Source: an archaeon (GTDB lineage Archaea > Iainarchaeota > Iainarchaeia > Iainarchaeales > VGJJ01). Taken from it: a stretch of DNA of 46,167 nucleotides. Of the stretch, positions 1-36,042 are shown piece after piece; within the stretch, counting starts at the first letter, position 1, and every line of letters begins with the position of its first letter. The notes under the pieces are model-generated. The model did no database searches, was not told the DNA's origin, and saw nothing but the letters and a program-made list of their open reading frames with translations. The translations under genes were made by a program, and so were the position numbers. Location of the stretch: contig JBBSWQ010000104.1 in the NCBI GenBank assembly GCA_038046225.1, forward strand, positions 1 through 46,167, given 5' to 3'.

Positions 1-838
1 TGGTCTCGGGCGTGGCGAGTTTCTCTTCCGAATAGGATAGGGAAATACTCCCTTGCTTAATCACCGAATAGATGTACATCCCCCACGGGTCGGCATCCAT
101 TAGTGCATACACGGGGAGCTTGTGTTCCTTGTTCAATCGTTGGACCAATCGTCGTTCGCCGCGGGCCGCTTGTCCTCTTCCCGTGATGATGATGCAGTCG
201 TTTTTCTGCCAGAACTTGTCTTCGTTGAATCGTCTCCATACGGCGTCCTTTTCGATGAATAATACGTAGGATGCGTCAATCTTCTTGATTTCCACCCGGT
301 CCTCTTCCACGTTGGATGGGACGCTCCATCCTCCGCTTCCCATTCTGGAGAGGTCGATCGTGTCTTTTCCGTCTTGCACGACCATGTTTCCGGAGATGAT
401 TCCTTTGGCCGAGGCGGCGAGATGGAGTTCTTCGCGGAGGAGGTTGAGGGATGCTTCCAAGTCTTCGATGAGGGGATCGCTTTCGGATTGGTCCTCGAAC
501 GTGTTTTCTTGGGTCCCTTCAATGGTGTGTTTTAATGCGTAGTAGAGATCACGAATGGACACCGTCGCGTTCTGGTGGATGACTTTCTTGATCTCGTTGG
601 CCACCAATGCGGTCTGCATGAATTTTCGTGTGTGGGCGATGTTGAGGAATTGCCTCTCTGATGTCTTGTCTCCCAGTTTGATGGTGCGTGATTTCTGGTC
701 GTAGAAGATGTTTCCCAGGGATCGCACGGGGAGCTCGATCGTGGGATTGTCTCCCTTGTTGATCTGTCCGACCAGTTGGTTTCCCATGGTTTCCAGTTTC
801 TTGATGACTTCCTTATCCTTTGTCTTCGTGTCGACCAT
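1..838 (-). CDS. top6A: DNA topoisomerase VI subunit A (Spo11-like), N-terminal ~279 aa; the gene runs off the window start
   Basis: Absent from the ORF track because there is no stop inside the window. My minus-strand translation from ATG 838-836 gives MVDTKTKDKEVIKKLE...VSIRDLYYALKH (catalytic Tyr context)...YVLFIEKDAVW...ITGRGQAARGERRLV...LMDADPWGMYI (Toprim). The ATG overlaps the top6B stop (TAATG). Confidence 0.85.
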   Translation of the reverse strand, partial: MVDTKTKDKEVIKKLETMGNQLVGQINKGDNPTIELPVRSLGNIFYDQKSRTIKLGDKTSERQFLNIAHTRKFMQTALVANEIKKVIHQNATVSIRDLYYALKHTIEGTQENTFEDQSESDPLIEDLEASLNLLREELHLAASAKGIISGNMVVQDGKDTIDLSRMGSGGWSVPSNVEEDRVEIKKIDASYVLFIEKDAVWRRFNEDKFWQKNDCIIITGRGQAARGERRLVQRLNKEHKLPVYALMDADPWGMYIYSVIKQGSISLSYSEEKLATPET

Positions 839-2586
839 TATTCCTCCCCTCCGTTCTCTTCATCGCCTTTTTTCGCTGCCTTTTTCCCTGTCTTGGCTTC
901 TTTTTCCTGTTTGTTTAATCGTGCGAGTTCTTTCTCTAGTTCCTCGTCGGATTCGGCTTCCAGTTCTTTCTCCTGCTGGTCGTCCAGTTTCAATCGTTTG
1001 GCTACGGTGTCCAATAGTTTGTGTTCGATGGGCTTTGGGTTCTGTTCCGTGAGCTCTCCCAGGGCGATGGCGACTTCCACGGCGTATTTCATGTAGATCC
1101 GTTTCTTTTCCTGTTTCAATCGTTCGCGTTCCTTTCCAATGATGTAGCGCGCCGTCCGTCTCCCTGCGTCCATGAGGGCGAGCCGAATCTCTTCCACAAT
1201 TTCTTCCTCGTTGGACACGGCCTGTTTTCCTGCCCCTGTGTAGGGGATGTGCACTGAGATGAGGTTGACGAAAATGGTCACGGGTGCTGTTTCCGCGTCC
1301 TTGATCCCGTATCGCTTCCAGTCCACGCTCTTGATGGCCTCGGTGATTCCGCATCCTCCCGTGTCGAATAATAGGGGTACGCGGTTGGCGAATCGCATGG
1401 CTTCCATGCGCATCTCTTCGCCTACTCTCCTTCCTGCTTTTCCTCCGTAGGCCACGGCGGCTTCCACTTGGAAGGGGTATCCTCCTTCCCGTACCGCGGG
1501 TTTTCGGGTGACCACGGATAGGAATTCGGGTTCCACAATCGATCGGAGGGATTTGTCCACTTGTTCTTCCCCGATGGGTCGGAGCATGTCCGTGCGGGGG
1601 GCGATGAATGTGACGGTTTTGAATGCCTTGATGAGTTCTTCAATTTCCTGCCATGATAATTGGTGGGGGTCCTTGTTCAGGTCGAAGGAGGTCTGTTTCT
1701 CAATCTCTTTGATCGCGTTGTCCCCCATCCGGTCCAATTCGGTCTTGAGGAATGAATTCGTCTTCCGGGAAGGGGTGGCCTTGGCCATGTTCAGGAGTTC
1801 ATCCACCGTGACCCCGCGGGGGTGGGGCTGCACTTCTTCAGGCTTGTCGGGAATCTTTTTGGCTGTCCGTTCGAATACGATGGTCTGTCCGGCCGGATCA
1901 GTAAATGTGATCTTGCAGTGGGGGTTGGCGATGGCTGTGCGTCGGAGGTATTCCAGGGGTCCTTGTTCATTGTTTACGTATTTCATTTCCTTGAATTGGG
2001 CCTTCACGATGGCTCCCCTGAATTTCTTGGTGAGGGGTTGAACATTGCTCACTTTGGGATTGTTGTACTTGGTGTCAATGCTCACGTCGCATGAGAATAC
2101 TTCGTGGGAGTTTCCCGTGACGACCTTCACTTCTTTGCCTGTGGTCATCTGGGATAGCATCGTGCATCCTGCGGCCCCTATTCCTTGCTGTCCCCTCATC
2201 TGCATGAGTCGGTGGAATTTGGTCCCTGCGAGTAATTGTCCGAATGCCTTTCCTACGGTTTCCTTCGTGAGTCCGGGTCCATTGTCGGCCGAGGTGACTT
2301 CGTAGTGCTCGTCCCCCAATTCTTTGATTTGGACGTCGATATCTGGGAGGATATCGGCATTTTCGCATGCGTCCAGGGAATTGGTCACGTATTCGTGGAT
2401 AATGGTCGTGAGTGCCTTGGTCTTTCCGCTCAATCCCAGCATTTGTTTGTTTTTTTTGAAGAATTCCGCCACGGAGTGTTCTCGGAACTCTTTCGCCATA
2501 TCGTCCGCGGTCACTCCTTCGTCCCGCGGATGGGCCGGTTTTTCCTTCTTTTCGTTGGTTTCCGTGGGTTTGGCCATCGTCTTCAC
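838..2586 (-). CDS. top6B: DNA topoisomerase VI subunit B (GHKL ATPase) with a Lys/Glu-rich C-terminal tail
   Basis: 582-aa ORF. Bergerat-fold motifs are present: EYVTNSLDAC, DNGPGL, GQQGIGAAG. It lies adjacent to and is coupled with top6A. GTG start at 2586. Confidence 0.9.
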   Translation of the reverse strand: MKTMAKPTETNEKKEKPAHPRDEGVTADDMAKEFREHSVAEFFKKNKQMLGLSGKTKALTTIIHEYVTNSLDACENADILPDIDVQIKELGDEHYEVTSADNGPGLTKETVGKAFGQLLAGTKFHRLMQMRGQQGIGAAGCTMLSQMTTGKEVKVVTGNSHEVFSCDVSIDTKYNNPKVSNVQPLTKKFRGAIVKAQFKEMKYVNNEQGPLEYLRRTAIANPHCKITFTDPAGQTIVFERTAKKIPDKPEEVQPHPRGVTVDELLNMAKATPSRKTNSFLKTELDRMGDNAIKEIEKQTSFDLNKDPHQLSWQEIEELIKAFKTVTFIAPRTDMLRPIGEEQVDKSLRSIVEPEFLSVVTRKPAVREGGYPFQVEAAVAYGGKAGRRVGEEMRMEAMRFANRVPLLFDTGGCGITEAIKSVDWKRYGIKDAETAPVTIFVNLISVHIPYTGAGKQAVSNEEEIVEEIRLALMDAGRRTARYIIGKERERLKQEKKRIYMKYAVEVAIALGELTEQNPKPIEHKLLDTVAKRLKLDDQQEKELEAESDEELEKELARLNKQEKEAKTGKKAAKKGDEENGGEE

Positions 2587-3116
2587 CTGAATTCGAACTC
2601 TTCGTCGTTGGTATGGGATTGCCGTAAGTAATTTAATACGCTGGCATGCTCGGCCCCCTTAATCAACATAAGGACGGCGTGTCGGGCTTTCTCCACATTA
2701 TCGGCTTTTCCAATGAGCCCGATGGTCTTTCCGTATACCTAAATATGCGTCTGCGTGGCGGCTTCGATCTTCTGCCGAATGGTTCCTTCCTTTCCGATGA
2801 TTCTTCCTTTCTTGCTCTGGATTTGTTTCCAGCTCTTTCCCAATTCTTCGGATAGGTTGATGAGCTCGAAATAGTATTCGTCATCCACGAGCTTCATGGC
2901 GTGTTCGGGGGAGAATCCTCTCCCTATCGCGCGGACGATATTGGCCGCTTTCAGGACGATGGCCGCGTCCTCTCCTTCTATTTCCACGTCCCCGTTCTTG
3001 CTGTCGATGCGTATCTTGGTTTGAGTCGCTTTTTCGACCGCCTTTTTGGTCCCCCCATTGGGTCCGATGGCGACCGCGACGCGATCCTTGGGTATTGCGA
3101 ATTCATCCGAAGGCAT
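2583..3116 (-). CDS. Two-KH-domain RNA-binding protein (aDim2/Pno1-like) interrupted by an in-frame TAG at 2739-2741
   Basis: The track ORF 2739-3116 ends ...IEAATQTHI*. The same frame continues VYGKTIGLIGKADNVEKARHAVLMLIKGAEHASVLNYLRQSHTNDEEFEFR, which completes the second KH domain. It stops at TGA 2583-2585, overlapping the top6B GTG start (GTGA). Conserved neighbourhood with RIO kinase and aIF1A. Confidence 0.7.
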
Positions 3117-3192: not shown

Positions 3193-3951
3193 CTACTCTT
3201 TCCTTTCTTTGACCCTTTTTATGTCGGCATAAAATTGATCGTAGGTCAATTCCTTCATCCCGAGGCGGTGGAACACCTTGAGCATATTCTTGATGTCCCT
3301 TTCATAGAACGTTTTGGCATTGGGGTGGATGGTGGGCACGGTCTGTCCCACGTCGATGATGATGGGCATGTCATCCTTCACTAAAATGTTGTATTCCGAC
3401 AAATCTCCATGAATCAACTTGGCGTTCAGCATGGCCGCGATGGCCTTGACCACGTTTTCGTAGAATTTTTCCAGGTCCCCGATCCGGGCATCTTTGAGTC
3501 GGGGGGATGCTTCTCCTTTTTCTCCGATGAATTCCATCACGAGCACATTTTCTTTTGCCGCCAATGGCATGGGGGCGGGGACCCCGGCCTCTTTGAGCTT
3601 GCGCAGGGATGAGAATTCTTTCTGGGTCCATGCGAAGACGATTTGCCGCTTGTCGTTCTTTACTTTTTGGAATCGGGGGTCGAAGTGGAGATAATCTTCC
3701 ATTCGTTTGAAGTCCGATGTTTCGATCTTGTATATTTTTACCGCGCGATAGTGTCCATGGTTATCGGATGCGCGGAACACATGGGCCTCTTTGCCGGTGG
3801 AGATGGTGAATTCCAGGTGGTCGAAATGTCCAAGTGAGGCGAGGTTGTGGATGACGCGGATCACATTTTTGTCGAACACTTTCTCGAAGGTCTTCCTCAA
3901 ATCTTCTTCCGGAAAGAGCTTGGAGAGGTTGAATTCGTCTGGATTGCTCAT
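3193..3951 (-). CDS. rio1: RIO-type serine protein kinase
   Basis: 252 aa with kinase motifs STGKEAHVF, AVKIYK, LIHGDLSEYNILV, IIDVGQ. Ends with TAG. Conserved aIF1A-Rio-KH synteny. Confidence 0.85.
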   Translation of the reverse strand: MSNPDEFNLSKLFPEEDLRKTFEKVFDKNVIRVIHNLASLGHFDHLEFTISTGKEAHVFRASDNHGHYRAVKIYKIETSDFKRMEDYLHFDPRFQKVKNDKRQIVFAWTQKEFSSLRKLKEAGVPAPMPLAAKENVLVMEFIGEKGEASPRLKDARIGDLEKFYENVVKAIAAMLNAKLIHGDLSEYNILVKDDMPIIIDVGQTVPTIHPNAKTFYERDIKNMLKVFHRLGMKELTYDQFYADIKRVKERKE

Positions 3952-4009
3952 GGTAATCCTCGGTCGGAATTGATTATCCTACTGCCCATGCACCACCTAG
4001 CATTGACGA

Positions 4010-4282
4010 TTATTTATAGGTTCTATCCTTTTTTCTCTCGATCCCAAAAATAGTGACTTTCTTATTGGGCCAGTCAACGAGGTATTTGATTCGATGGGTT
4101 TGAATTCGGATTCTATATTCAGTATCGCTTCCGCTTAATTTTTCCACATCGAATTCTTTGGCAGGGGCAGGATACTGGCGTAGCGCCGAAATGGCCTCTG
4201 TTACTTTTTCTTTCAGTTTTGCATCGAGTTTTGAATACTCTTTTTCAGCCCGATGGCTAAACTCAACATAAAAGGATTCCAT
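4010..4282 (-). CDS. RelE/ParE-family type II toxin
   Basis: 90 aa. Pattern YRIRIQTHRIKYLVDW...VTIFGIERKKDRTY is typical of the RelE/ParE fold. A small upstream partner gene precedes it. Confidence 0.7.
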   Translation of the reverse strand: MESFYVEFSHRAEKEYSKLDAKLKEKVTEAISALRQYPAPAKEFDVEKLSGSDTEYRIRIQTHRIKYLVDWPNKKVTIFGIERKKDRTYK

Positions 4283-4289
4283 TAGAGGG

Positions 4290-4499
4290 TCACCCGTGGC
4301 GTTTTTTTACTTCTTCCCAAGAAATGACATTGCCTTCTGCAATATCCTTTCGGGCTTCCAGTATCTCTTTCAATTCTTTTTTAGTGGGTCTTACTTCTTT
4401 CACTCCCATTGCTTCTACGCGTATTTCGAGCTTATTGACCCGTTCCTGCAGCTGATGGATAGCTTGTGTTTCGCTCATGGAGGTAGTTCGCTTCTTCAT
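4290..4499 (-). CDS. Putative cognate antitoxin (small helical protein)
   Basis: 69-aa ORF lying 7 nt upstream of the RelE-like gene on the same strand. No specific family recognised. Confidence 0.45.
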   Translation of the reverse strand: MKKRTTSMSETQAIHQLQERVNKLEIRVEAMGVKEVRPTKKELKEILEARKDIAEGNVISWEEVKKRHG

Positions 4500-4661
4500 A
4501 TTCTTAATCCTACGGATGGTGTTCCGCCGACTAAATAAATCTGCTTCCCGAATTGCGTTGGGGGGTGCGTTCTTATCACTGCCCCTCCGGTTACAACCTA
4601 TTCGATGGATGTTTGGCGGATGGGTCCAGCGGTGTGTTTTCGCATTCCGTCTGGTTGGCCT

Positions 4662-6310: not shown

Positions 6311-6340
6311 GCGAGAATGATGAGTGGGTCGCGTCTTCTT

Positions 6341-7207
6341 TTATTGGAATACTCCGGAGACCGATATGATACCATACGTGAGGACCATGAGGGCCACTTG
6401 CAGGGGAAGGGCAGGCAGGGCTTTTCCCACGTGCTTACTCCCATAATCCAGGGTGAAGGCCAGTCCCGCGAATGCGGCGAGCAGGATGATAATCGATGGG
6501 ACAACCGCTGGAATCCCCGATAATCCTCTCGTGATTGAGTCGTTGAGCACCGATACTCCGAACACGAGGGGCATGACCAGGTCCCCGGTTCCCAATTCGA
6601 ATTGGTGTTTGGGCGTGGGCATGGCGAACGTGAAGGAGAGATTCTTCTTCGCCACCGCCTTGGCCATGGTGACCATGTGTTTGGTCTTGTACACCGCGAT
6701 GTAATCGTAGACGGCTAATAAGATGAGGAAGATGATCACGGGCAATACGCCAATGCTCGCCCCGAGGAGAGAACCCACTCCCACGGTGGCGATAATGGAG
6801 GAGATGTTCCTCCAGATGAGGTATTGGGGCAGGATGATCCGAATCATGATGAGTCCTACTGCGAGGATGATGGCGATGGCCTGCACCATGTCCTTTTCCA
6901 CGATGGGGAGGTATGCGATGAGTCCCCAGAACGTGATGAAGGCCGTCGTGACCAATGCCATGGCCTCAATTCCCTTCAGCACCCAATACAGTATTTTGTC
7001 GGGGAAGAATTTGATGGCGATGAGGATGAAGGCCGTTCCCACGAGCATGTATCCAATGAGCCCGAGCGAATTGATGGGGTCCTCCGGGTCGTCATTGATG
7101 ATGGTGGTCTGCAGGTCTTCCTGGATGAGGTGGTATCCCACCAGCAGTCCCAATCCGTTCACGATGAGGAAGAACATTCCCAGCTGGAGTATCAATTCCC
7201 GGTCCAT
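6341..7207 (-). CDS. Presenilin/signal-peptide-peptidase-like intramembrane aspartyl protease (A22 family)
   Basis: 288-aa polytopic membrane protein with YD (LAVYDYIAV), GxGD (LGTGDLVMP) and PAL (KALPALP) motifs in canonical order. Confidence 0.75.
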   Translation of the reverse strand: MDRELILQLGMFFLIVNGLGLLVGYHLIQEDLQTTIINDDPEDPINSLGLIGYMLVGTAFILIAIKFFPDKILYWVLKGIEAMALVTTAFITFWGLIAYLPIVEKDMVQAIAIILAVGLIMIRIILPQYLIWRNISSIIATVGVGSLLGASIGVLPVIIFLILLAVYDYIAVYKTKHMVTMAKAVAKKNLSFTFAMPTPKHQFELGTGDLVMPLVFGVSVLNDSITRGLSGIPAVVPSIIILLAAFAGLAFTLDYGSKHVGKALPALPLQVALMVLTYGIISVSGVFQ

Positions 7208-7248: not shown

Positions 7249-10200
7249 TCAGGCGCTCTTGAGGAACCCGTGCGTGGGTTCGTATATTTCCCCGGCTTTT
7301 TTGAGTTTGGTGATGAGGTCCCTCACTTTCTCTTCCTCAATTCCCCTGGATAGGGCTTCGGCGACTACATCCTGGATGGGTACCTTGTCCATCTCCTTGC
7401 TCTTGGATTTGATTATTTCCGTGATAGTTCGCATGTGGTCGCGCGAGGATTGCGTCTGTCCGCTTGTGATGATGTCGATATCGATGCGTCCCGTCTCGGG
7501 GTCCTTGACCACGTCCTCCAATGAGCTTTTCACCAATCGTATGGCGCGTTCTGCATCTTCCGTCGTCACTTCGTCGCTCAACCGGACGCGAGCCGATGCC
7601 TCGGCCAGGCGAACGAGTCCTTCCAATTGCCTCGCGGTGGCTGAATAACTTCCGGCTTGCCTTCCCTGGTCGCGCAACCCCACATAGAATTCTTGGAGCT
7701 GGGCCACTGCCTCGTGAGAGAGGATGGGGAATACTCGCTGGCGGGCGTAGGAGATGTATTTCCGCAATAGTTCCGCATCGATGGCGGGGGCGATCTTGTC
7801 CTGGATGGATTGTATCTCCTGCGTGTTGATCTGCTTGTTCCCGCGATTCATTTGGAGCAATTGTTCTCCCGCTCGGTGCGTGGCGAGGATGTGGGCGGCG
7901 ATGGTTTCGTCCTTTTTCCGGTCCAGCGTGTCCCGGATCATGAAGAATAAATCGAATCGCGAGATGAGGGAGGCGGGGAGGTCGATTTGTTCGAAGAATG
8001 GCTTGTAGTTGTCGAACCGTGATAGTTTGGGGTTTGCGGCCGCCAATACGGAGGTGTCGGTCTTGAACCGGGTCACCATTCCCGCTTTCGCCACGCTCAC
8101 CTGTCCCTGTTCCATGGCCTCGTGCATCGCGGATCGGTCCTCGGGTTCCATCTTGTCGAATTCGTCCACCATGACCATTCCTCCGGACGCTAACACGAGT
8201 GCGCCGGCCTTGAGGGTCCATCCTCCTTCTCCGAAGTCGTCTTTCACTGCGCTAGCCGTGTTGTGGACGTAGAATCCATTGGCGATGAAGTTGTGGCTTC
8301 CCGAAACGGTCATATCATACACGTAGGGGTAGTTGGGAGCGAATTCTTCTTTTCGTTTGATTTGATCCCACAGGATGTTGGCGTTGCTTAGCTTTTGGAG
8401 AAAACTATCCTCTTCATTTTTCATGAGCTCTTTCAATTTTGTGCAGGAGATGCGCGTCTTTCCTTTCTTGTATTTGACATCGGCTTTCGTTTCCTGCAAT
8501 GCCTCTGTTATTTCGGGGACGAAATCGATATTAGTCCTTTCTTCATGAATGCTTTGGATGATGGCGTCCAGCGTCTTCTGTTTTCGTTCGAGTCCGAATC
8601 CTATTTTTTCCCTGAATAGTTGGAGGTTTCTTTTTCCATAGATTTCGATGCAGTACTGGTCGTTTCGGCTGATGACGGTTATTTTTCTTCCGATGGCGAT
8701 GTTTCCTGCTCGCTTCCTGAATCGTTTTTTGGCGATTATTCCGAATTTGAGGAGAGATAGGTGGATCGTCTTGGCAAGGGATGGGCTGATTGAACTGATG
8801 CTGACATTCTTTCCGCCTGTTTTTGAATCATCCGCGCATCCATCTGTATCGAATAACCCTTGCAAAAGGTTTCGCAGAATCGGATTGGGCATCTCGGTGG
8901 CCATGTGCGATAATGTATTTTCTTTTTTCTCCGGCCGCATTCCATAGGCGTGAAGAATTTTTCCTAGAATGCGTGAACTCATTCGAAGGGAGGGGACTCT
9001 TTCTTCGCTTTTTTCCCTTTCGGGGATTATCCCGAACGTGTCACGCAATATTTGAGTGCATCGTTCGAGTATCTGCGGGTCGTTTCCACAGAGGCGGATG
9101 GTGGTTCGATCATCGCTATCTTCCATGCATCCGTCTCCCATGATGGCCCCAACCAGATACGCGACATCCGGATCATCCAGGTAGGGGGGGATGCGATTGG
9201 TGATGCCATGCCGGATGAACAGAGTCGTTATCCGTTGGGCGATTTGATCATCCGAATATCCGGCCTCGCGTGCCAATCCCACTACTTTTTGCAGTTCCCA
9301 TCCATGATAAAATTTAGGATTCTGGATGGCATAAATAGTGTCTCGGCTCTTTCCTACCTTTTGGGCAATAGCTTGTTTGCTGCCATACTTTGGGACGAGT
9401 TTCTCAATCATTTCCTTCATCCATCCCGCCAATGGGTCCCCAATTTTGATGTGGGGATCGTTCAATAGTGCGGTGAATGTGGGGATATTTTTCCGTTTCC
9501 CTTCGGGCAAAAACCGCGGAACGGCAACGTAGTCTCCATGTTGCAGCTCGCTGGCTTCAATCCACTCGGTTTTGCTGTTTTTGAGTCGGATGAGTGAAGT
9601 AGCGGGGGTCAGGTCCAGCTCCCTTCCGGTTCGCGTGATTAATTTTACCATCGTAGGGGGGGCGTTTATCCTCCATATTTTTTCAATCGGTTGGATCGCA
9701 AAATCCAACTGTCCGGTGAGTGCATCTGTCTTTCCATTGAATTCATTGCTGAATGCTCCCGGCAACTCTTCCCGTTTCGCGTCATTATCGAATTTTGCTT
9801 CAACAAACTCCTGGATGGTCTTGAATCCATCATCATTCAGGATCAATGAATCGGGTGCCACGCACAATCCGGCACTCGAGCTCCCCTTACCACTCACATA
9901 CACGCTCTTTGGCGCAATCTTGTCGGTGGCGTGCAGGAGCATAGAGTTGTGGGAGTATATTCCATTGGAAATGAAGTTGTGCGTGCCCTCGATCTCCATA
10001 TCATACACGTATTCCTCGACCGGGATTTCCTCTACCTTTTTCACTTGGTCCCAGAAAATATCCGAGATGGCCATTTTCATGAGGTTGGTGATGTCGTGCC
10101 GGAGTTGGACGTCCTCGTATCCATTTTCGTTATAGCGGTTCATGAATCCTGCCGCGATGAGATAGAGATTCCCTCGCGTGGGATTCCTATCTCCGCGTTC

Positions 10201-12435
10201 GTAGTGTTGGTAGGTCGTTCGAGGCATCTCCATTTGGAATTGGGAAAGGCCAAGAGTCTCTCGTATTCGTCTGATCTCCTCGCTCGTGCCTGGAACCACG
10301 TCTATATTCGTGTTGGGCTTGAATCCGAATAGTTGTTCGCACGCCTCTTTTTTTCGTTGGGTGATGAATCCTATTTCGTGGGCGAATTTTCGGGCAAAAT
10401 CACCTGAAATGGTCATGCGCCAATAGTCTCGTTTGATTCGTCTCCCATTCGTGGCCATTTTTCGTGTTTTTTGAGTGGTGGAGACGATTCCGAAACGCAA
10501 TAGGAGGTGGGATAATTCAATCAGGAGGCGTTCGCTCGCGGATGAGACCTCGATGGTGGATTGTTTTTTCCCATTGGAACGGACGGCCTGGACGTGCCCT
10601 TCCCCTTCGATGAATGCTTGGATGAATCCCTTGATGGTCACGAGGTCGCTCTTTTGGATGATGGCTGGAATCGTCCTCTGGCGGGAGTAGTTCAACAGTT
10701 CCGGGGTGTTGGTTTGGAGGAATCGGTAGAGCTCCACGCTGGGCAGGTCGCACGTGGCGGTTATTCCTTTCATCCGTTCTGAAAAGTGCAATCCAAAAAG
10801 ATCGTCCGATACTTTTCGGAACAATTCGATATTTTCATGGTCCGAGTTGGTGAATATCAGTCCGGTCGAGTTATCATGCGCGCGTGCATTTCCTTCTCCA
10901 AGGAGCAATCCGATGAATTGGCCGAATTGGAAGGAGGTCTTCTCCGGAAAACGGATATGCACCGCATTCGTCTTTCCTCTCCCGACCGGGTGCAGGGGCT
11001 GGGGGGTGCCGTGCACCGTGATGGATCGGGGGGTTGCGATAAAATCCCCTGCTTTCAATGATTCGGCCGGTGTGGCATCGGCTTTGGCCCGGTGGGCTTT
11101 GAATAATGGGTGCGTGTGCGTGCACTTGATTGTTTTCCCTGTTTGGGTCGTGACCCGGACCATTTTTTCGGGGACTCGTTTAGAGGCGGCTACGGCCTTT
11201 CCTACAATTTGTTTGATATCCCCATTCAGGATGGGCATTGGGGTCACCTGCTGCATGACGGCCATCATTCCGTCGGATAATTTTTCGGAGTTCTGGGAGA
11301 GGTGCTTCTCCACTAGGATGGAAATGGGGGACAATTCTCCACTGCAGAGGGGAACCAAGGCATCGCCTGAGACGCATTTTCCTGTTCCCGGGTCCCCCAC
11401 CAGGAGCACGTGGATGTTTCCCCGGATCCGTGTGTCGTCGGGGAGGTTTTTCCGCACGCCTCCGAACAATTGGAGGGAGATGGATTCCTTGGCGAGTTCG
11501 TGTCCGTGGATGGAGGGGGCGATGGATTGGATCAGGTATTCGTAGATGCGTGGGTTATTGGATAATTCCTTGATCTTCGTCTCGTCCTCTTCGTTGATGG
11601 AAACGTCCTCGAATTCCTTTTCGGTCTCTTCGAGGTGGATGGCTTCTAGGTATCGTCCGTATACGTTCTTCTTGTCCTTGTTGGGGGGGTATAGCCGGAG
11701 GACTCCCGTGATCATGGTCCGGTTTCCCGGATATACTTTGTTCACGAAATCGTCTTCGATGTACACGTCCAGGTTGACGGCCTGTTCGCTCCCTTTGAGG
11801 CTCTCTAAGGGTTCCTGTATCTGTATTTTTTGGTAGTCCGTGAATGCACTCCCCTCTGGGAGCAATTCGAAGTCCTTGTGCTTGCACGAGCATAGCGCGG
11901 GTTTTCGCTGCTGATGTCCTTCTTGGAGTATCTGGTATGTGTTCCCGCACCGCTTGCACCGCCAATTGGCGTTCTTGAGTTTGGGCATGACCTCCGTGAC
12001 TTGTCGAATGACTCCTTCCACGGAGATTAATCGTCCTAATTGGGCGGCGGAGATGTCCCGTACGAGCGGAGTGCGGTCCTTGGGTAGGCTCCGGAATCGC
12101 ACGTTGGGGGTGAATTGGTCCAGTTGCAATACGGATACTTCTATTTTCTGCACCGCGAGCTTGGCGGCCTCCATCAATAGGTCGGGGTGCTCCAAAAGTT
12201 CGTTGGCCAATTCGTAGTCGAACTCGTCCAAGTCGTTGAAATCCACGATTAATGAGCGTTGCTGCGGGTATTCATGGGCGAGTTTTTCGATCTGCTTTTT
12301 GTATTCCAGCGTGGAGAAGAATTCTTCGAATTTGGGGATGAAGGGATTGGCCTCTCCCTTGAGGACGGTGGAGGCAATCTCCATCTCTTCCGGTTTTTCG
12401 AACCGGGACTCATGATACTGGTTATCCCCATCCAT
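7249..12435 (-). CDS. mcm: MCM replicative helicase precursor containing two inteins (716-aa extein)
   Basis: 1728 aa. Contains a zinc motif CKRCGN...CSCKH. Walker A GDPGTGK|S is split by intein 1. SAGL|TA is split by intein 2. Walker B is VMVDEFDKM, followed by an arginine finger region and a C-terminal wHTH. Confidence 0.95.
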   Translation of the reverse strand: MDGDNQYHESRFEKPEEMEIASTVLKGEANPFIPKFEEFFSTLEYKKQIEKLAHEYPQQRSLIVDFNDLDEFDYELANELLEHPDLLMEAAKLAVQKIEVSVLQLDQFTPNVRFRSLPKDRTPLVRDISAAQLGRLISVEGVIRQVTEVMPKLKNANWRCKRCGNTYQILQEGHQQRKPALCSCKHKDFELLPEGSAFTDYQKIQIQEPLESLKGSEQAVNLDVYIEDDFVNKVYPGNRTMITGVLRLYPPNKDKKNVYGRYLEAIHLEETEKEFEDVSINEEDETKIKELSNNPRIYEYLIQSIAPSIHGHELAKESISLQLFGGVRKNLPDDTRIRGNIHVLLVGDPGTGKCVSGDALVPLCSGELSPISILVEKHLSQNSEKLSDGMMAVMQQVTPMPILNGDIKQIVGKAVAASKRVPEKMVRVTTQTGKTIKCTHTHPLFKAHRAKADATPAESLKAGDFIATPRSITVHGTPQPLHPVGRGKTNAVHIRFPEKTSFQFGQFIGLLLGEGNARAHDNSTGLIFTNSDHENIELFRKVSDDLFGLHFSERMKGITATCDLPSVELYRFLQTNTPELLNYSRQRTIPAIIQKSDLVTIKGFIQAFIEGEGHVQAVRSNGKKQSTIEVSSASERLLIELSHLLLRFGIVSTTQKTRKMATNGRRIKRDYWRMTISGDFARKFAHEIGFITQRKKEACEQLFGFKPNTNIDVVPGTSEEIRRIRETLGLSQFQMEMPRTTYQHYERGDRNPTRGNLYLIAAGFMNRYNENGYEDVQLRHDITNLMKMAISDIFWDQVKKVEEIPVEEYVYDMEIEGTHNFISNGIYSHNSMLLHATDKIAPKSVYVSGKGSSSAGLCVAPDSLILNDDGFKTIQEFVEAKFDNDAKREELPGAFSNEFNGKTDALTGQLDFAIQPIEKIWRINAPPTMVKLITRTGRELDLTPATSLIRLKNSKTEWIEASELQHGDYVAVPRFLPEGKRKNIPTFTALLNDPHIKIGDPLAGWMKEMIEKLVPKYGSKQAIAQKVGKSRDTIYAIQNPKFYHGWELQKVVGLAREAGYSDDQIAQRITTLFIRHGITNRIPPYLDDPDVAYLVGAIMGDGCMEDSDDRTTIRLCGNDPQILERCTQILRDTFGIIPEREKSEERVPSLRMSSRILGKILHAYGMRPEKKENTLSHMATEMPNPILRNLLQGLFDTDGCADDSKTGGKNVSISSISPSLAKTIHLSLLKFGIIAKKRFRKRAGNIAIGRKITVISRNDQYCIEIYGKRNLQLFREKIGFGLERKQKTLDAIIQSIHEERTNIDFVPEITEALQETKADVKYKKGKTRISCTKLKELMKNEEDSFLQKLSNANILWDQIKRKEEFAPNYPYVYDMTVSGSHNFIANGFYVHNTASAVKDDFGEGGWTLKAGALVLASGGMVMVDEFDKMEPEDRSAMHEAMEQGQVSVAKAGMVTRFKTDTSVLAAANPKLSRFDNYKPFFEQIDLPASLISRFDLFFMIRDTLDRKKDETIAAHILATHRAGEQLLQMNRGNKQINTQEIQSIQDKIAPAIDAELLRKYISYARQRVFPILSHEAVAQLQEFYVGLRDQGRQAGSYSATARQLEGLVRLAEASARVRLSDEVTTEDAERAIRLVKSSLEDVVKDPETGRIDIDIITSGQTQSSRDHMRTITEIIKSKSKEMDKVPIQDVVAEALSRGIEEEKVRDLITKLKKAGEIYEPTHGFLKSA
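8260..9864 (-). mobile_element. MCM intein 2 (535 aa, LAGLIDADG homing endonuclease) inserted at ...SAGL|TASA...
   Basis: Cys1 (TGC at 9864-9862). Block A CVAPDSLIL. LAGLIDADG motifs are YLVGAIMGDGC and LLQGLFDTDGC. Block F/G is VYDMTVSGSHNFIANGFYVHN, followed by +1 Thr. Confidence 0.8.
9946..11376 (-). mobile_element. MCM intein 1 (477 aa, LAGLIDADG homing endonuclease plus HTH) inserted in Walker A between GK and S
   Basis: Cys1 (TGC at 11376-11374). Block A CVSGDALV, block B CTHTH. LAGLIDADG motifs are FIGLLLGEGN and FIQAFIEGEGH. Block F/G is VYDMEIEGTHNFISNGIYSHN, followed by +1 Ser (9943-9945). Confidence 0.85.
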
Positions 12436-15726: not shown

Positions 15727-17259
15727 ATGTCCAAGGGTTTCTTCATTTCGTGCGCGATCGATTATCCCAATGCCAATCTCCATATGGGCCACCTGTATGA
15801 GAAGACCATCGCGGATGTGATTGCGCGCGTCCACCGGCTGAATGGGGAAAAAGTCCTTTTTACGGTGGGGAGTGATGAGCACGGGGAGAAAGTGGAGAAG
15901 GCCGCCCACGATGCGGGGTATTCTCCCCAGCAGTATGTGGACAATATGGCCATGCTCTTCCGTCGATTGTTCGACCAGTCATTGATATCCTATGATCGTT
16001 TCATCCGAACGACCGAAAAATCCCACGTCACGGCCGCCCAGGTGTTCTTTCAGTCCCTCTTCGATGCGGGGGATATCTATCCCGACCTGTATGAGGGTTG
16101 GTATTGCGTCTCCGATGAGACGTTTTGGACCGAGAAGGATTTGGTGGAGAAGAACGGGGCTAAACTATGTCCAAACCCTCATTGCGGAAAACCCGTTGAG
16201 CGTGTGAAGGAGGAATCGTATTTCTTCAAGTGGAGTAATTTTCAAAAGCCATTAGAAGAGTGGTATGATCACGTCCCTGCCAACGTGTTTCCTGAATTTA
16301 GGAAGAAGGAGATGGAGCAGTTCATGAAGGATGGGCTTCATGATATCTCGTTTTCTAGAAAATCCCTCCAGTGGGGGATTCAGGTCCCATTCAATTCGGA
16401 GCATACCATTTATGTGTGGGGGGATGCGCTGGTAAACTATTTGACGGTGTGCGGCTACCCTGAGAAGTATGCTGATTTCTGGCCCGCGGATATTCATGTG
16501 GTGGGTCACGATATCAATCGCTTCCACTCCCTGCTGTGGCCCGCCATGCTCATGAGTGCCAAGATTCCATTGCCCAAACAGGTCCTCGTTCACGGCTTCG
16601 TGAATGATGAGCGCGGAGAGAAAATGTCCAAGTCGAAGGGGAATGTGGTGGATCCTCTCCTCATTCTGGAGAAGTTTGGCATCGAGCCCATCCGGTATTA
16701 CCTATTGCGCGAGGCTCCCCTTGGGAACGATTTGGCCTTTTCGGAAAAGAACCTCATCGAGCGGAATAATTCCGAGTTGGCTGACGGATTGGGGAACCTG
16801 GTCTATCGTGTTTTATCCATGCTTGAGAAATACTGCAACGGGGTCATTCCAGACATCCAACCGGATGGGCAAATTCTTGGACAGGCTTCTCTTTCCGCCC
16901 AAGAATCCTATCGTTCCTACCTCTCCCATGACATTCAGGGAGCATTGGTCCATGCGTGGAAGATCGTATCGTTGGGAAACAAATCTATCGCGGATTCGGA
17001 GCCCTGGAAAAAGATGAAGGATGGGAAGCGGGACGAAGTGGAGGTGTTATTGGTGACGGAAGTGGAATTGCTGCGGCAGTTATCCATTCTTATTCAGCCG
17101 GTCCTTCCTACCACGAGCGATTCCATCTGCGCCCAATTCGGCTTTTCCACTCCTACCTTCTCCCAATTGTCCACGACCCCTCCCTCAAGTCCTCGTGCGG
17201 TGAAGAAGGGAAGCGTATTGTTTGTGAAGCGCGAACTTCCGGCAGTAGAAACGAAATAA
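15727..17259 (+). CDS. metG: Methionyl-tRNA synthetase
   Basis: HIGH-type motif (ANLHMGH) and KMSKS present; zinc knuckle CPNPHCGKP. Start trimmed from TTG 15667 to ATG 15727 (MSKGFFIS). Confidence 0.9.
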   Translation: MSKGFFISCAIDYPNANLHMGHLYEKTIADVIARVHRLNGEKVLFTVGSDEHGEKVEKAAHDAGYSPQQYVDNMAMLFRRLFDQSLISYDRFIRTTEKSHVTAAQVFFQSLFDAGDIYPDLYEGWYCVSDETFWTEKDLVEKNGAKLCPNPHCGKPVERVKEESYFFKWSNFQKPLEEWYDHVPANVFPEFRKKEMEQFMKDGLHDISFSRKSLQWGIQVPFNSEHTIYVWGDALVNYLTVCGYPEKYADFWPADIHVVGHDINRFHSLLWPAMLMSAKIPLPKQVLVHGFVNDERGEKMSKSKGNVVDPLLILEKFGIEPIRYYLLREAPLGNDLAFSEKNLIERNNSELADGLGNLVYRVLSMLEKYCNGVIPDIQPDGQILGQASLSAQESYRSYLSHDIQGALVHAWKIVSLGNKSIADSEPWKKMKDGKRDEVEVLLVTEVELLRQLSILIQPVLPTTSDSICAQFGFSTPTFSQLSTTPPSSPRAVKKGSVLFVKRELPAVETK

Positions 17260-21125: not shown

Positions 21126-21205
21126 CTCACAGGCCTCCCACGCGTTGATTTAAATGCCTAAACCCCTTCTATGGGTATTATTCCGTCCATTCGGGAGTGA
21201 AAAAC

Positions 21206-23437
21206 ATGGGTCGAAGTATCACGATTGTTTCCGGGAAGGGGGGAGTAGGCAAGTCGCTCGCCTTCGACGAGTACATCAGTCTTCCCAACGGAAGCATTGT
21301 TCAAATTGGCCCTTATATCGATGAACTCATTTCCAGAAGCCCCCAATCGGTGAAGAAAGTCATTTACCAACTGACCGATGGTTCCGAGGAAACGTTTGAA
21401 GTAATCGAACCGGCTGCCGGTTTTGAGTTGGACTCATTCTTGTTCTCGCAGCAAAATCAACAATTGGTGCACGTTCAAAAGAAACCCGTCTCGTTGATGC
21501 GCAAACCGGCGCCCAACGAGCTCCTAAAAATTAGTTGCTCTTCGGGAGATATTTCAGTAACCCCGGAGCACGCGTTTATTGTCATGCGCGAAGGTCAATT
21601 GCAGAAAGTCCGCGCGGACGAACTCGTTGCAAAGAAAGACTACGTGCTCTTATATAAGAATTTCAAAAATATCGAAAAAGAAGAAAATGTTCCAACTCCT
21701 GTCGCTTCTTGGTTGGGGTATGTTATTGGCGACGGCCACATGAGCGATTATCGTGTGGGAGTGTATAATTCTCCCGGAAAATTGCTTCCTCTTATTCGTA
21801 AATCATTCATGGACGTGTTTGGAGAATACCATGAAGTGGTCTCGCGCGGATTGCATGGAATTCATATCTATAAACAGGGAAAGATAAAAGCCATTTTTGA
21901 AAAATACGGGGTGAAGCAAGCTCTGTCCGGTGAAAAGGAAATCCCGACGTCATTATTTGACTCCAATAATGTTTCTCTTTCCGCATTCCTTCGAGCTCTT
22001 TTCGATTGTGATGGAACGGTGAACATTGAACGAAAGGAGGTGGAATATGATTCGAAATCAAAAAAGCTTGTATTCCAGGTCGCCTCTCTTCTCCGAACCC
22101 GTTTTGGGATTTCCTCTCAAATACATCTTACCTATAAAAGAGCCACGAATAGTAAAATGAAAGAGAAAGCCCCCTATTGGAGATTATACATTACGGGGGA
22201 AAGCGCCCGAAAGTTTGGCCAACTTATTGGATTTAATCACGTTGAAAAGGCGCGACGCTTGTATGCCAATTTTTCGAATAATAGAAAAATGAACACAAAC
22301 ATTGAAGTTTTTCCTGTCGGAAAGATTCTCAAAAAGATTCGCCAGGATTCAAATTTGACCGCTCTCCAAATTGCCAAAAAATTAGGCTGTACCAAACAAA
22401 TGGTGTATGAATACGAATGGGAGTATTATGGTCTATCTCGAGAAACAGTGCAAAAATATCTGAATCTATATTCTCAAATGAATGTTTCTCATCCCCAGCT
22501 TTCTTGGTTGCGGCAAATGCTAGAAGGGACCATTGAATTCCGTCGCGTGGATGAAACAAAGAAGATTTCCTATGATTGGCCCCATGTGTATGATTTCCAA
22601 GTGGCTGAAAACGGGGGACATTTCGTCCATTCTACTGGAATCATTATTTCAAATACATCCATCACGGCCAACCTGGGTATCGCCATGGCCCAGCGCGGGG
22701 TATCCGTGTGTTTAGTGGATGCGGACATCGCCATGGCGAATCTCTCCTTGTTATTGGGCATGCAGTCTTCTCCCATCACCCTTCACGATGTGCTGTTAGG
22801 CGAGGCGGGTGTGCAGGATGCCATTTATGATGGTCCCAATGGGCTGAAGCTCATTCCTTCCGGTTTGAGCTTGGAAAATTATCGCAGGGTGGATGCCGAC
22901 CGATTGGCTTCCGTCATCAAAGCTATCCAGCACAAGTTCGATTTTGTCTTATTGGATGGTCCGGCCGGGATTGAAAAGTCCGTGCTGGCCTCCATCGCGG
23001 CCACGGAGGAATGCCTGCTCATCGCCACGCCCGATTCTCCTTCCATTGCGGATGTGTTGAAAACAAAAATCGTGGCGCAGCGTTTGGGAAGCAAGCCTCT
23101 GGGCGTGGTATTGAACATGGTGCATTTTGAGAAGGGGGAGATTTCCAAGGAAGAAGTTTCTCGCATGATGGAACTTCCCGTGTATGCCGCGGTCCCCTAT
23201 GATGACGAGATGCGCCACTCCTTCCAGCGGGATAAGGCATTGCCCGTCATGCTTCGTAACTCTCAGGCCAAGTCCTCGATTGAGATTCAACGCCTCGCGG
23301 CCCGCTTGGCGGGGCTTCCCGTGCAAGCGGAGGAGAAGCACCCTCGCGGTCTTTTCGCGGGAATCATGGGTTTCTTCGCCCGACTATTCGGCGGGGGCCA
23401 TTCCAAGGGAGCGGGTGTGGAAGAGGTTCGGATATAG
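21206..23437 (+). CDS. minD: MinD/ParA-class deviant Walker A ATPase precursor containing an intein; C-terminal amphipathic membrane-targeting helix
   Basis: The extein reads MGRSITIVSGKGGVGK|TSITANLGIAMAQRGVSVCLVDADIAMANLS...LLDGPAGIE...GLFAGIMGFFARLFGG. Likely ATG at 21206, with GGGAGTG 8 nt upstream; the track uses GTG 21197. Confidence 0.85.
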   Translation: MGRSITIVSGKGGVGKSLAFDEYISLPNGSIVQIGPYIDELISRSPQSVKKVIYQLTDGSEETFEVIEPAAGFELDSFLFSQQNQQLVHVQKKPVSLMRKPAPNELLKISCSSGDISVTPEHAFIVMREGQLQKVRADELVAKKDYVLLYKNFKNIEKEENVPTPVASWLGYVIGDGHMSDYRVGVYNSPGKLLPLIRKSFMDVFGEYHEVVSRGLHGIHIYKQGKIKAIFEKYGVKQALSGEKEIPTSLFDSNNVSLSAFLRALFDCDGTVNIERKEVEYDSKSKKLVFQVASLLRTRFGISSQIHLTYKRATNSKMKEKAPYWRLYITGESARKFGQLIGFNHVEKARRLYANFSNNRKMNTNIEVFPVGKILKKIRQDSNLTALQIAKKLGCTKQMVYEYEWEYYGLSRETVQKYLNLYSQMNVSHPQLSWLRQMLEGTIEFRRVDETKKISYDWPHVYDFQVAENGGHFVHSTGIIISNTSITANLGIAMAQRGVSVCLVDADIAMANLSLLLGMQSSPITLHDVLLGEAGVQDAIYDGPNGLKLIPSGLSLENYRRVDADRLASVIKAIQHKFDFVLLDGPAGIEKSVLASIAATEECLLIATPDSPSIADVLKTKIVAQRLGSKPLGVVLNMVHFEKGEISKEEVSRMMELPVYAAVPYDDEMRHSFQRDKALPVMLRNSQAKSSIEIQRLAARLAGLPVQAEEKHPRGLFAGIMGFFARLFGGGHSKGAGVEEVRI
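21254..22654 (+). mobile_element. MinD intein (467 aa, LAGLIDADG endonuclease plus HTH) inserted in Walker A between GK and T
   Basis: Ser1 (TCG at 21254-21256). Block A SLAFDEYISLPNG, block B VTPEH. LAGLIDADG motifs are WLGYVIGDGH and FLRALFDCDGT. Block F/G is VYDFQVAENGGHFVHSTGIIISN, followed by +1 Thr (22655-22657). Sampled lines look AT-richer than the flanks. Confidence 0.8.
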
Positions 23438-25024: not shown

Positions 25025-26533
25025 TTATTTCTTTTTGGTGAACAATCCGAATCCGTTCTTGTTTTCCTTGGCGGGGGCGGCGTGGGGGATGGTCGGAGGC
25101 GCTGGGGGGGCGGGTCGTGCTTGTTCCATTTGTACCTTCCATTGGGTGATGAGTTCGGACAATTGGGTCACGACGATATCCACTTGTTTGGTGCGTGATT
25201 CGAGGAGGCTCATTTTCTGATCGGCCTTTCCTTCGAAATCCGAGAGTTTTTCCTTGAAGCTCTTTACTTGGTCTTCTCGTTCCATGTTGGCTTTTTTGAT
25301 GGTCTCAATCAGCTGTTTGGTATACGCATCCACATTCTGGAGCTTGGTCTCGGCCTCCACAATCTTCTGTCCCAATTCCCTCTGCGAGGAGGCCATATTC
25401 GCCGATTGCTCTTCGACCTTCTTGAAGAAGTCCTTCTCTTTGCTCGCGGCGATGGTTTCCATCTTGGTGTTCACAATCTTGTCCACGTCCAGCATTTTTC
25501 GGTCGAATTCCTGATCGATGTCAGTGGATTTCTTGGCGAGCATTCCTTCCAGTTCCCCTTTCGTCTTCTTCATCTCTGCATTCATGCGCATGAATTCCTG
25601 CATGGTGGATTGGATGTCCTGCGATGCGAGGTCGGCTCCTAGTTTTTTGAGTTGGACGATCTCGTCGCGTATTTCCTGTCGGAGGTCCTTGACTTTTCCC
25701 TCGAGTATGGCGTTCGCCTGCGTCTCCATCTGGTCGGATAATCCTTGCGTAATCTTCTGTTCGATCTCTAATGTCTTCGTGGCGCGTTGTTCTACTTCCC
25801 CCACGCGTTCGTCGGTCTTGTTCACGAGCTCGTTGACTTTTTCTTCAAGCTTTTCAAGTTTTTGGGACGCGTCATCCATGATCATGCGTCTCGTCTCGTC
25901 GAGCTGGGTGGTTTTTCCATTGATATCTTCCATGAGCTCGGTCACGGCCATCTTTTGTCCTTTGATGCGCTGGAGGTCTTCCTGCGTGGCCGTGTTGAGT
26001 CGGCGTATCTCTTCTATTTTCTGGTTGAGTATCTCATCCATGTCCTTCACTTTGGCGTCCATCTGGGCGTCCATCTTGAACCGGAATAGTTCGCGTTGGG
26101 CATCGAATAGGGCTTCGAGTTTTTTTTGCATGACCTGATAGTGCTCACTCACCTTCGTCTCGAGCACGTCATCGATCTCTTTCTTGAGTTTCTCCATCTG
26201 GGCGAGCTTGCTGTCCACCGTCTGGAGGATTCCTTTTTCCCATAGCTTGGCGATGGACGTGTCGGGGGTGGGAGGATTTGGATTTGTTGCCGGGATTGGT
26301 TGGGGGGGGTTTGGTACCGTGATAGTCTGTGTCCGGGCAGGTCGGGCGGTGGGAGCATCCATTCCCGGTAATTCAGACGGATGTATTTCCTTGCTCGTGG
26401 CCTGCCGCACCCATCGTTCTGCCTGCGTGCGGGGGATGTTCATTCCTTCGAGTTCATTCAATAGTTCTTCGTCATCCAATCCCATCTCTCTCAATTTTCG
26501 AATGTTGGCGAGGATGGCGTCCTGGTTGGGCAT
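25025..26533 (-). CDS. Long coiled-coil protein (small N-terminal helical domain, Pro-rich linker, ~380-aa coiled coil, Pro-rich C-terminal tail)
   Basis: 502 aa with K/E/Q/L-rich heptad-like composition throughout. C terminus ...RPAPPAPPTIPHAAPAKENKNGFGLFTKKK. Confidence 0.6.
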   Translation of the reverse strand: MPNQDAILANIRKLREMGLDDEELLNELEGMNIPRTQAERWVRQATSKEIHPSELPGMDAPTARPARTQTITVPNPPQPIPATNPNPPTPDTSIAKLWEKGILQTVDSKLAQMEKLKKEIDDVLETKVSEHYQVMQKKLEALFDAQRELFRFKMDAQMDAKVKDMDEILNQKIEEIRRLNTATQEDLQRIKGQKMAVTELMEDINGKTTQLDETRRMIMDDASQKLEKLEEKVNELVNKTDERVGEVEQRATKTLEIEQKITQGLSDQMETQANAILEGKVKDLRQEIRDEIVQLKKLGADLASQDIQSTMQEFMRMNAEMKKTKGELEGMLAKKSTDIDQEFDRKMLDVDKIVNTKMETIAASKEKDFFKKVEEQSANMASSQRELGQKIVEAETKLQNVDAYTKQLIETIKKANMEREDQVKSFKEKLSDFEGKADQKMSLLESRTKQVDIVVTQLSELITQWKVQMEQARPAPPAPPTIPHAAPAKENKNGFGLFTKKK

Positions 26534-33827: not shown

Positions 33828-34991
33828 ATGACGAAAGAGATCGTGGTGCCGGGCGAATTGCTGAGCACCGAAAACAAACAGTTGGGCTCGCATACGTTTG
33901 CAGTCGGAGAAAGTATTTTCGCGGATTGTTTAGGTATCCGCAATGAGTCGGATGACCGGTTGTCCGTTGTTCCCTTGCGTGGGAAATATGTTCCGTTGGC
34001 GGATGATGTTATCATTGGCGTCGTCAAGAATGAGAAGTTCGCCGGATACGATGTGGAAATTAATTCCTTCTACGCTTCCTTCGTGAACAAGCAGGATCTT
34101 CGAACCCCCTTGAAGGTGGGTTCCATCATCTCCGCGAAGATTGTGAAGGTGAATGAGTTGAATGAAGCGGACATCGGTATGGTTCGCCCCCTCACGGATG
34201 GGGATATTGTTTCCGTGACCGCGGTCAAGGTTCCTCGGGTTATTGGGAAGAATGCTTCCATGCTCAATGCCATCCGCAATGGCACAGGCTCCAGCGTCAT
34301 GGTGGGGCGCAACGGCCTCGTCTGGGTCAGCGGGGGAAACACCCGCTTGGCCATGGATGCCATCCAACGGATTGAGGAGTTCTCGCACGTGGAGAACTTG
34401 ACGCATGATATTCAATCCTTCCTCGCCGCCAAGAGCGGGCAAGGCATGCCGGACACGCAGGGTCCGGGGAATGAAGAAGCATTTGGGTCGGATGACCAAG
34501 GATTCAGCGGCGGTCGCGGTGGATTTGGCGGCCGTGGTCGCGGGGGATTTAGTGGGGGTCGCGGTGGATTTGGCGGCAACCGGGATCGTGGGGATTTCCG
34601 TCCCCGTCCCAGTATGGGGGGTTCTCGCGACCGTGGGTTCGGTTCCGGTTCAGGTTCCGGATATAGTGGAAACAGGGAACGTAGTTTCGGTGGAAACCGA
34701 GATCGGGGTCCCCCTTCGGGTGGGGATCGCTCCCCGGGTGGTTTTCGTCCCCGCTTCAACGATCGGCGATTAAGTGGGGGAAATAGGGAGATGGATAATT
34801 TTCGTCCCAATCGGAGCTTTGGGGCCCAATACGAGAGCCCTTCCTCCGAGGGATATGCCCCTTCTCCCCCGCGAATGGGTCCCCGGGATCGAGGGATGGG
34901 GGATCGCGGGAATGATCGGGGTTTCGACCGCCGGAAGCGTTTTCCCCCGCGGGAGAATGTGCGAGGGGATGAGGATCCCTCCTTCGAGTAA
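33828..34991 (+). CDS. rrp4: Exosome cap subunit Rrp4 (N-terminal, S1 and KH domains) with a ~184-aa RGG/RDRG-rich C-terminal extension
   Basis: 387 aa. The core ends around aa 203; the tail contains GFSGGRGGFGGRGRGGFSGGRGGFGGNRDRG... Shine-Dalgarno AAGGAGTGA lies upstream. Confidence 0.85.
   Translation: MTKEIVVPGELLSTENKQLGSHTFAVGESIFADCLGIRNESDDRLSVVPLRGKYVPLADDVIIGVVKNEKFAGYDVEINSFYASFVNKQDLRTPLKVGSIISAKIVKVNELNEADIGMVRPLTDGDIVSVTAVKVPRVIGKNASMLNAIRNGTGSSVMVGRNGLVWVSGGNTRLAMDAIQRIEEFSHVENLTHDIQSFLAAKSGQGMPDTQGPGNEEAFGSDDQGFSGGRGGFGGRGRGGFSGGRGGFGGNRDRGDFRPRPSMGGSRDRGFGSGSGSGYSGNRERSFGGNRDRGPPSGGDRSPGGFRPRFNDRRLSGGNREMDNFRPNRSFGAQYESPSSEGYAPSPPRMGPRDRGMGDRGNDRGFDRRKRFPPRENVRGDEDPSFE
34500..34787 (+). 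repeat. Low-complexity RGG/GGF-coding repeats inside rrp4
   Basis: The nucleotide unit ggtcgcggtggatttggcggc occurs twice (34511-34531 and 34557-34577). Further degenerate RG/RDRG units follow. Confidence 0.7.
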
Positions 34992-35074
34992 GCCGAATGG
35001 GCGCTGCGCGATGGCAAATTAATCGCTTGATAAAAAAAAACAAAAATGGAAACACGAACTGGGTGAATGAAAAC

Positions 35075-36042
35075 ATGGCTAAAGAAAAAGATACCAAAAT
35101 GGAAACCAAGACCAAGAAGTCGTCCAAGGGCGACGAGAAACTTTATTGGGTCGATGCCAAAGGAAAGCGGGTCGACGGGCGGGGAGTGACGGATTTGCGT
35201 CCCATCAAATACAGGCCGGCATCCTTCCCAATGCGGATGGTTCCTGCTACCTCGAGTGGGGCCAGAATAAAGTGCTGGTCTCCGTGAACGGTCCTCGGGA
35301 AGTATTGCCCAAGCACCAGGCGAATCCGTATCGGGCCATCGTCCGGTACACCTACCGGATGGCCGCTTTTTCCGTGACGGAGCGCAAGAATCCCCGTCCG
35401 GGCAGGAGAGAGATGGAGATATCCAAGGTCTCCGGGGAGGCATTGGAGCGCGCTATCTTCCTCGAACGATTTCCCAATACCGCTATTGATGTTTTCGTGG
35501 AAGTCTTAGACTCAAATGCGGGAACACGCATCGCATGCCTCACGGCCGCCGCGGTGGCGGTGGCGGATGCGGGCATTCCCATGCGGGATTTAGTGACCGG
35601 AATCACGGTGGGTCGTTCCGACGGACACCACCTCGTGGATTTGAACAAGCACGAGGAGGATGCCGATGATGCCGTGGATATGGCCGTGGCCTTCCTTCCC
35701 AATTCCAAGGAAGTGGTGCTCCTCCAGATGGATGGGGAAATATCCTCGGAGGATTACTCCAAGCTCATGCAGGCCGCCATGGAAAACATTGAGAAGGTCT
35801 ACGCGCTCCAGACGAAGGCCCTCAAGGATTCCGTGGAGCAGAAACGACCGGATGTCGTGGAGGGAATGGAGCAATACTTGAACACCCCTCCTGCGGATCA
35901 TTCCAGTGATGCCCATCCCAAGGGGGAGCCCGTCTCCCTCAAGGAGAAGGATCCCTTTTCCTTTGGGGAATCGGATTACTCGGAAGCCGAGGAAGAGAAC
36001 ACCGATGCCGAACACGAAGCGTTCGACGCGGGAAAGGAATAG
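35075..36042 (+). CDS. rrp41: Exosome catalytic-ring subunit Rrp41 (RNase PH-like); the reading frame is broken by a -1 shift at 35207-35211
   Basis: Frame A (35075-35209) gives MAKEKDTK...LYWVDAKGKRVDGRGVTDLRPIK. Frame A-1 (from 35209) gives IQAGILPNADGSCYLEWGQNKVLVSVNGPRE... Joined, they read the canonical ...DGR..DLRPIKIQAGIL.NADGS.YLEWG... GGTGA lies 9 nt upstream of the ATG. Confidence 0.8.

Follow-up and report, generated by a model that had tools for sequence, protein, structure and literature searches.

The archaeal Dim2 (aDim2p) gene in the window, by which we mean the whole 46,167-nt stretch of archaeal DNA analyzed here, carries an in-frame TAG that is probably a consensus error in a low-coverage metagenome-assembled genome (MAG). 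The change is a private transversion at a conserved residue, it lies close to a second private change, and similar lesions occur elsewhere in the same MAG. It is because these lesions are private, clustered or placed at contig ends, because they are transversions at sites under selection, and because they create all three stop codons, that we favor a consensus error of short-read assembly at low coverage. The coordinates of the features discussed are collected in Table 1.

Table 1. Features of the Dim2-top6B region of the window (contig C104) and internal nonsense codons found in the MAG.
Feature	Position	Strand	Description
aDim2p / arCOG04150 gene	2583..3116	-	177-codon frame including the internal TAG; terminal TGA 2585..2583
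In-frame TAG, codon 126	2739..2741	-	near-invariant Ser in relatives (ISVYGKT); private base T at plus-strand 2740
Codon 120	2757..2759	-	GCC (Ala) in the window; GAC (Asp, at least 90% of the family) in sister assemblies
AGGTGA (last Arg codon and TGA of Dim2)	2583..2588	-	kept in 13/13 genus-level loci examined
top6B (topoisomerase VI subunit B)	838..2577	-	conserved ATG 2577..2575 (MAKPTE...), 579 aa
Dim2 nonsense codon (TAG)	C104:2739		TCG>TAG
Ribosomal protein uL13 nonsense codon (TAA)	C71:1473 (1473-1475)		TAC>TAA; two further private changes within 16 nt
M42 peptidase nonsense codon (TGA)	C85:17245 (17245-17247)		GGA>TGA; 121 nt from contig end
Cyclophilin nonsense codon (TAA)	C128:8475 (8475-8477)		GAA>TAA; 57 nt from contig end

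On the minus strand, the Dim2 frame opens with an ATG at 3116..3114 and runs through 125 sense codons, ending ...IEAATQTHI, to the TAG; the part beyond the stop consists of 51 sense codons (VYGKTIGLIGKADNVEKARHAVLMLIKGAEHASVLNYLRQSHTNDEEFEFR) followed by the terminal TGA. The codon-usage log-odds amount to 0.34 upstream and 0.30 downstream of the TAG, against a genome median of 0.22 for real genes and approximately 0 for shadow frames, and the stretch 3' of the TAG is clearly coding sequence, not a chance open frame. Moreover, the Pfam models KH_KRR1_2nd and KH_PNO1_2nd exceed their cut-offs (27 bits) solely when the TAG is read through, with scores of 43.6 and 33.1 bits, respectively, while KH_1 then matches two stretches; the 125-aa stub fails both of the second-KH models. 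In the second KH domain, the GxxG loop (GKEG, residues 108-111) precedes the TAG. Judging from the standard KH topology and the alignment with PH1566, the stop would leave the type-I KH fold without its beta2-beta'-alpha' portion. The idea that the downstream piece is a gene of its own or is made by re-initiation was rejected, the piece corresponding to beta2-beta'-alpha' of the same KH domain; for re-initiation downstream of the TAG, the first codon that could serve is a GTG, 15 codons in. The preliminary description of this DNA had reported the in-frame TAG at 2741..2739 with the frame running on to the TGA at 2585..2583, and had assigned the extension to the same gene instead of a separate one; both statements are borne out, the latter by the coding signal and the second-KH Pfam models. 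It had also argued that the extension supplies what a KH domain needs, including the GxxG region, and here the first part stands (the extension is needed for the fold), whereas the GxxG loop is not in the extension.

By its profile and structure matches, the gene encodes the universal archaeal two-KH protein aDim2p (arCOG04150/TIGR03665), an rRNA-processing protein whose eukaryotic counterparts are Pno1/Dim2 and Krr1. The read-through product clearly exceeds the TIGR03665 cut-off of 114.2 bits. For P0126, the intact protein of the sister assemblies, the match amounts to 187.8 bits and spans positions 2-167 of the 173 in the profile; the 125-aa stub reaches 130.5 bits, but it covers only positions 2-122 of 173. 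The best solved-structure match is PH1566 from Pyrococcus horikoshii (PDB 2e3u/3aev; residues 6-167, E = 2.9e-38), and the read-through product also matches APE0754 from Aeropyrum pernix (PDB 1tua) and, more weakly, eukaryotic Pno1 and Krr1. Similarly to the window gene, PH1566 and APE0754 possess two type-I KH domains, and PH1566 too has Ser at the position of the TAG (SVSVYGKTV). The 3aev structure concerns binding to the 16S rRNA 3' end and aIF2-alpha, activities to which the window gene is linked by its sequence similarity to PH1566 only. The closest database homologues, labeled Diapherotrites archaeon or "ribosomal RNA assembly protein," show 88-90% identity and are exactly 177 aa long. 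In an alignment of 37 sequences, the TAG column is Ser in at least 90% of them, within the motif I-S-V-Y-G-K-T; the residue at this site, which the preliminary description had left to an ortholog alignment, is hence a near-invariant serine. Compared with the aDim2p family, the window record differs by the TAG and Asp120Ala alone, and P0126 is an ordinary member.

The Dim2 gene is placed between the RIO kinase gene and top6B/top6A, the same as in relatives. A sister annotation gives a top6B of 579 aa that starts at the same ATG, 6 nt after the Dim2 stop, and in relatives 5 to 10 nt separate the TGA from the top6B ATG, with five nt in the window. Since this spacing varies, the GTG at 2586 is not a conserved top6B start, and the suggestion that top6B begins with this GTG and is translationally coupled to Dim2 through a GTGA overlap was not confirmed; the conserved start is the ATG at 2577. 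Given its match to the anti-Shine-Dalgarno sequence and its distance from the ATG, AGGTGA is likely a Shine-Dalgarno-like element for top6B, embedded in the end of Dim2. Several other features of the window were recorded along the way. According to Pfam tags on sister loci, the MCM gene (approximately 7249-12435, minus strand; 1728 aa) contains two intein/LAGLIDADG insertions, and a ParA/MinD-like ATPase gene (21197-23437, plus strand; 743-746 aa) contains one. The gap between the eIF1A and RIO kinase genes (3950-4500) holds a small ParE-toxin-like pair, where a 90%-identical relative (L001, 2562-2921) instead has an oppositely oriented cupin gene; the gap is a small variable island in an otherwise syntenic block.

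A six-frame search of 40 relatives revealed an internal stop in Dim2 in none of the 38 that bear the gene; only the window's genome has one, and the relatives from the same genus read TCC, TCG, TCT or TCA, all Ser, at codon 126. At 90% clustering, the window's 125-aa stub is grouped with the 177-aa P0126, which differs from the read-through product at two residues. The DNA encoding P0126 was recovered from the NCBI assembly GCA_964359765.1, from ENA ERZ1292627 (Hain_H51_01um_R2, cov 5.9) and from the Logan assembly of SRR32696705. The window is 99.92% identical to the former two over 13,116 nt without gaps, and differs from the latter at 2 of 929 nt, namely 2740 and 2758. These three near-identical assemblies (99.8-99.9%) all read TCG at the position where the plus-strand change G>T at 2740 converts Ser126 into a stop (TCG>TAG), and all read GAC at the position where the plus-strand change T>G at 2758, 18 nt from the former, replaces Asp120 by Ala (GAC>GCC). 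GCA_964359765.1 and ERZ1292627 may share reads, so that the independent witnesses are perhaps two, not three; SRR32696705 comes from a different run series. On record, the exact 125-aa stub is found on one contig, the window's own, and the intact allele on four, so the same lesion in independent assemblies or samples, which would mark a true pseudogene, was not seen. A scan of JGI metagenome contigs matched neither Dim2 allele and is uninformative.

We compared approximately 43 kb of the window with the sister contigs and classified 50 differences among the assemblies. About 40 of these differences between near-identical assemblies are synonymous third-position changes, mostly transitions, and the synonymous variation is ordinary microdiversity under purifying selection. 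Short, nearly purely synonymous tracts were noted at 25511-25580, 26123-26156 and 43224-43302, some of them common to two assemblies, and they are suggestive of natural haplotypes or of recombination. The Dim2 pair (2740 and 2758) stands apart from this background: each is a transversion in the second codon position and hits a residue that at least 90% of the family shares. In addition, a private 1-nt deletion in an A-run (plus-strand position 35207) breaks the Rrp41 gene (region approximately 34412-35443), while two sister assemblies (L059 and L060) keep the extra A and encode an intact 348-aa RNase PH gene. Two further sites in the window deserve a separate mention. Four private transversions are found within 54 nt at 6318-6371 (G>T at 6318, 6345 and 6353; C>A at 6371), spanning the 3'-terminal part of the signal-peptide-peptidase gene and the bases right after it, a cluster which resembles the Dim2 pair. 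The kinase-like gene at 41078-41805 is identical in the sister contig L059, hence its disruption is shared and not private to the MAG.

For a genome-wide view, ORFs from G013, the nearest relative at species level, of which 702 kb were used, served as tblastn queries against the window's genome (G000), with shadow ORFs removed by a codon-usage log-odds filter; approximately 146,000 aligned residues were covered. This search revealed four credible internal nonsense codons in the window's genome, in the genes for Dim2, uL13, M42 peptidase and cyclophilin, together with an additional, benign early TAA in the tail of uS14. The uL13, M42 peptidase and cyclophilin genes are each intact in near-identical assemblies, the stop being private to the window's MAG, and each of the four private nonsense changes, Dim2 included, is G:C>T:A. 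The reverse search, with ORFs of the window's genome against the relative, gave no credible internal stop. Frameshifts, with N-gaps excluded, numbered three in the window's genome and two in the relative; given these similar counts, the MAG is not unusually indel-prone, and its excess is in substitutions. The k-mer coverage tags of the sister contigs are 5.1-5.9, values that apply to those contigs and not to the window's own MAG.

The favored course of events is that a single-base miscall, G>T on the plus strand at 2740, would have turned the TCG of Ser126 into TAG, and that a second miscall, T>G at 2758 (Asp120>Ala), would most likely derive from the same poor read segment. In the organism itself, codon 126 would then be read as Ser with no special decoding, and the protein would end at the TGA just before top6B. 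The C>A/G>T change belongs to a class of library-preparation artifacts that arise from oxidative damage and that were reported from deep data, where their allele fraction is low (Costello et al., 2013; PMC3616734). The four nonsense changes of the MAG, all G:C>T:A, are like such artifacts and like the consensus errors that occur at low coverage and at contig ends; two of the four sites indeed lie at contig ends, and the other two lie in short clusters of private changes. For an oxidation artifact to reach the consensus, the local depth must be very low, and it should be pointed out, as a counterpoint to an error, that 2.7 kb of sequence separate position 2740 from the contig end.

The competing explanation that comes closest is that the TAG is a real allele, either a nonsense mutation of very recent origin or a deleterious variant at low frequency, so that this copy of Dim2 would be a fresh pseudogene, perhaps in a lineage that may have a G:C>T:A mutator spectrum. 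We regard this as possible but rather unlikely. The 51 codons beyond the TAG are the same as in the sister sequence and retain the full coding signal, as expected soon after a mutation, and the four nonsense changes are all of a single type, which impaired repair of 8-oxoG would yield too; a real lineage with such a mutator spectrum would give the same pattern of base changes. Against this, the TAG allele is confined to a single contig, and another non-conservative private change lies 18 nt from it. With approximately 20 private differences per 43 kb, the chance of another one within +/-18 nt is, by our own arithmetic, about 2% per site, yet a close second private change is present at both mid-contig nonsense sites, Dim2 and uL13. 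Moreover, the zone within 125 nt of contig ends makes up approximately 3.4% of the genome, yet it contains two of the four nonsense sites, which fits an assembly error and not mutation. Given the known roles of these proteins, the joint loss of Dim2, uL13 and Rrp41 in one genome would be biologically implausible, and a cell without all three would presumably not be viable. On these grounds, we infer that the cause is a read or assembly error rather than a living minor allele.

The preliminary description had also raised programmed read-through, and more broadly the TAG might be decoded, whether a near-cognate or suppressor tRNA lets ribosomes pass it in a programmed or leaky manner or pyrrolysine-type recoding takes place, so that full-length Dim2 would be made at a lowered level as a form of regulation. 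The frame does run into sequence required by the KH fold, and conserved in-frame stops with signs of purifying selection are known in prokaryotic genes, where read-through has been put forward to explain them (Belinky et al., 2021; PMC7918605). The Dim2 case resembles that class in having an in-frame stop whose downstream part is seemingly under purifying selection; what defines the class, however, is that the stop is conserved among related genomes, and the Dim2 TAG is absent from 99.9% identical assemblies. Since the stop is not conserved (in none of the 38 relatives and none of the three near-identical assemblies), we place Dim2 outside this class and do not uphold programmed read-through; any decoding of the TAG appears very improbable. 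The same sequence downstream of codon 126 follows a sense codon in the sister assemblies, and its RNA folding is unremarkable: for 111 nt from nine bases before the TAG, the minimum free energy is -27.2 kcal/mol versus a shuffle mean of -27.6 kcal/mol (z = 0.10). The other interrupted genes of the MAG use TAA and TGA, so there is nothing specific to TAG, and of the further in-frame TAGs in conserved genes whose search had been proposed earlier, none was among the credible cases. Two genes with eRF1 domains (aRF1/Pelota type) are present. With the pyrrolysine (TAG) recoding of methanogens, the Dim2 case shares the codon only: TAG is a common terminator in this genome, and the site aligns to Ser. 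The decoding machinery that had been proposed for a search was likewise not detected in this 87.8% complete genome, as ARAGORN, with or without its intron search, reported no tRNA with a CUA anticodon (29 tRNAs, more with introns), and the matches to PylS (32.6 bits; cut-off 178) and PylD (16.3 bits; cut-off 150) were sub-threshold hits to other enzymes. Genome-wide reassignment of TAG was considered as well and rejected, as TAG ends 162 of 807 long ORFs (20%) and closes the RIO kinase gene (3193-3195), in agreement with the earlier remark that TAG is a normal terminator elsewhere; the median in-frame distance to the next stop does not differ between TAG (30.5 codons), TAA (27) and TGA (25). 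Very improbable, too, is that the TAG allele is real in a subpopulation of this DPANN archaeon and tolerated because leaky termination at TAG-G, by near-cognate decoding, would yield a certain amount of full-length Dim2, with the uL13 TAA tolerated likewise. If that were true, it would suggest that termination is unusually permissive in an archaeon with a reduced genome, and a TAG both real and decoded would add a rare case of an essential archaeal gene whose stop is read through, but the evidence speaks against this.

Among the three options offered at the outset (read-through, a recent nonsense mutation or a base-call error), it is therefore the base-call error that is favored, since the stop is absent from the 38 relatives and from the three 99.8-99.9% identical assemblies and since the MAG carries other private lesions; mutation is possible, and the evidence speaks against read-through. 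The value of the observation is as a quality flag for a MAG that carries private lesions in Dim2, uL13, Rrp41, M42 peptidase and cyclophilin, in which pseudogenes, apparent "recoding" and frameshifts should not be taken as biology without read support. For annotation, the gene should be treated as an intact aDim2p of 177 aa.
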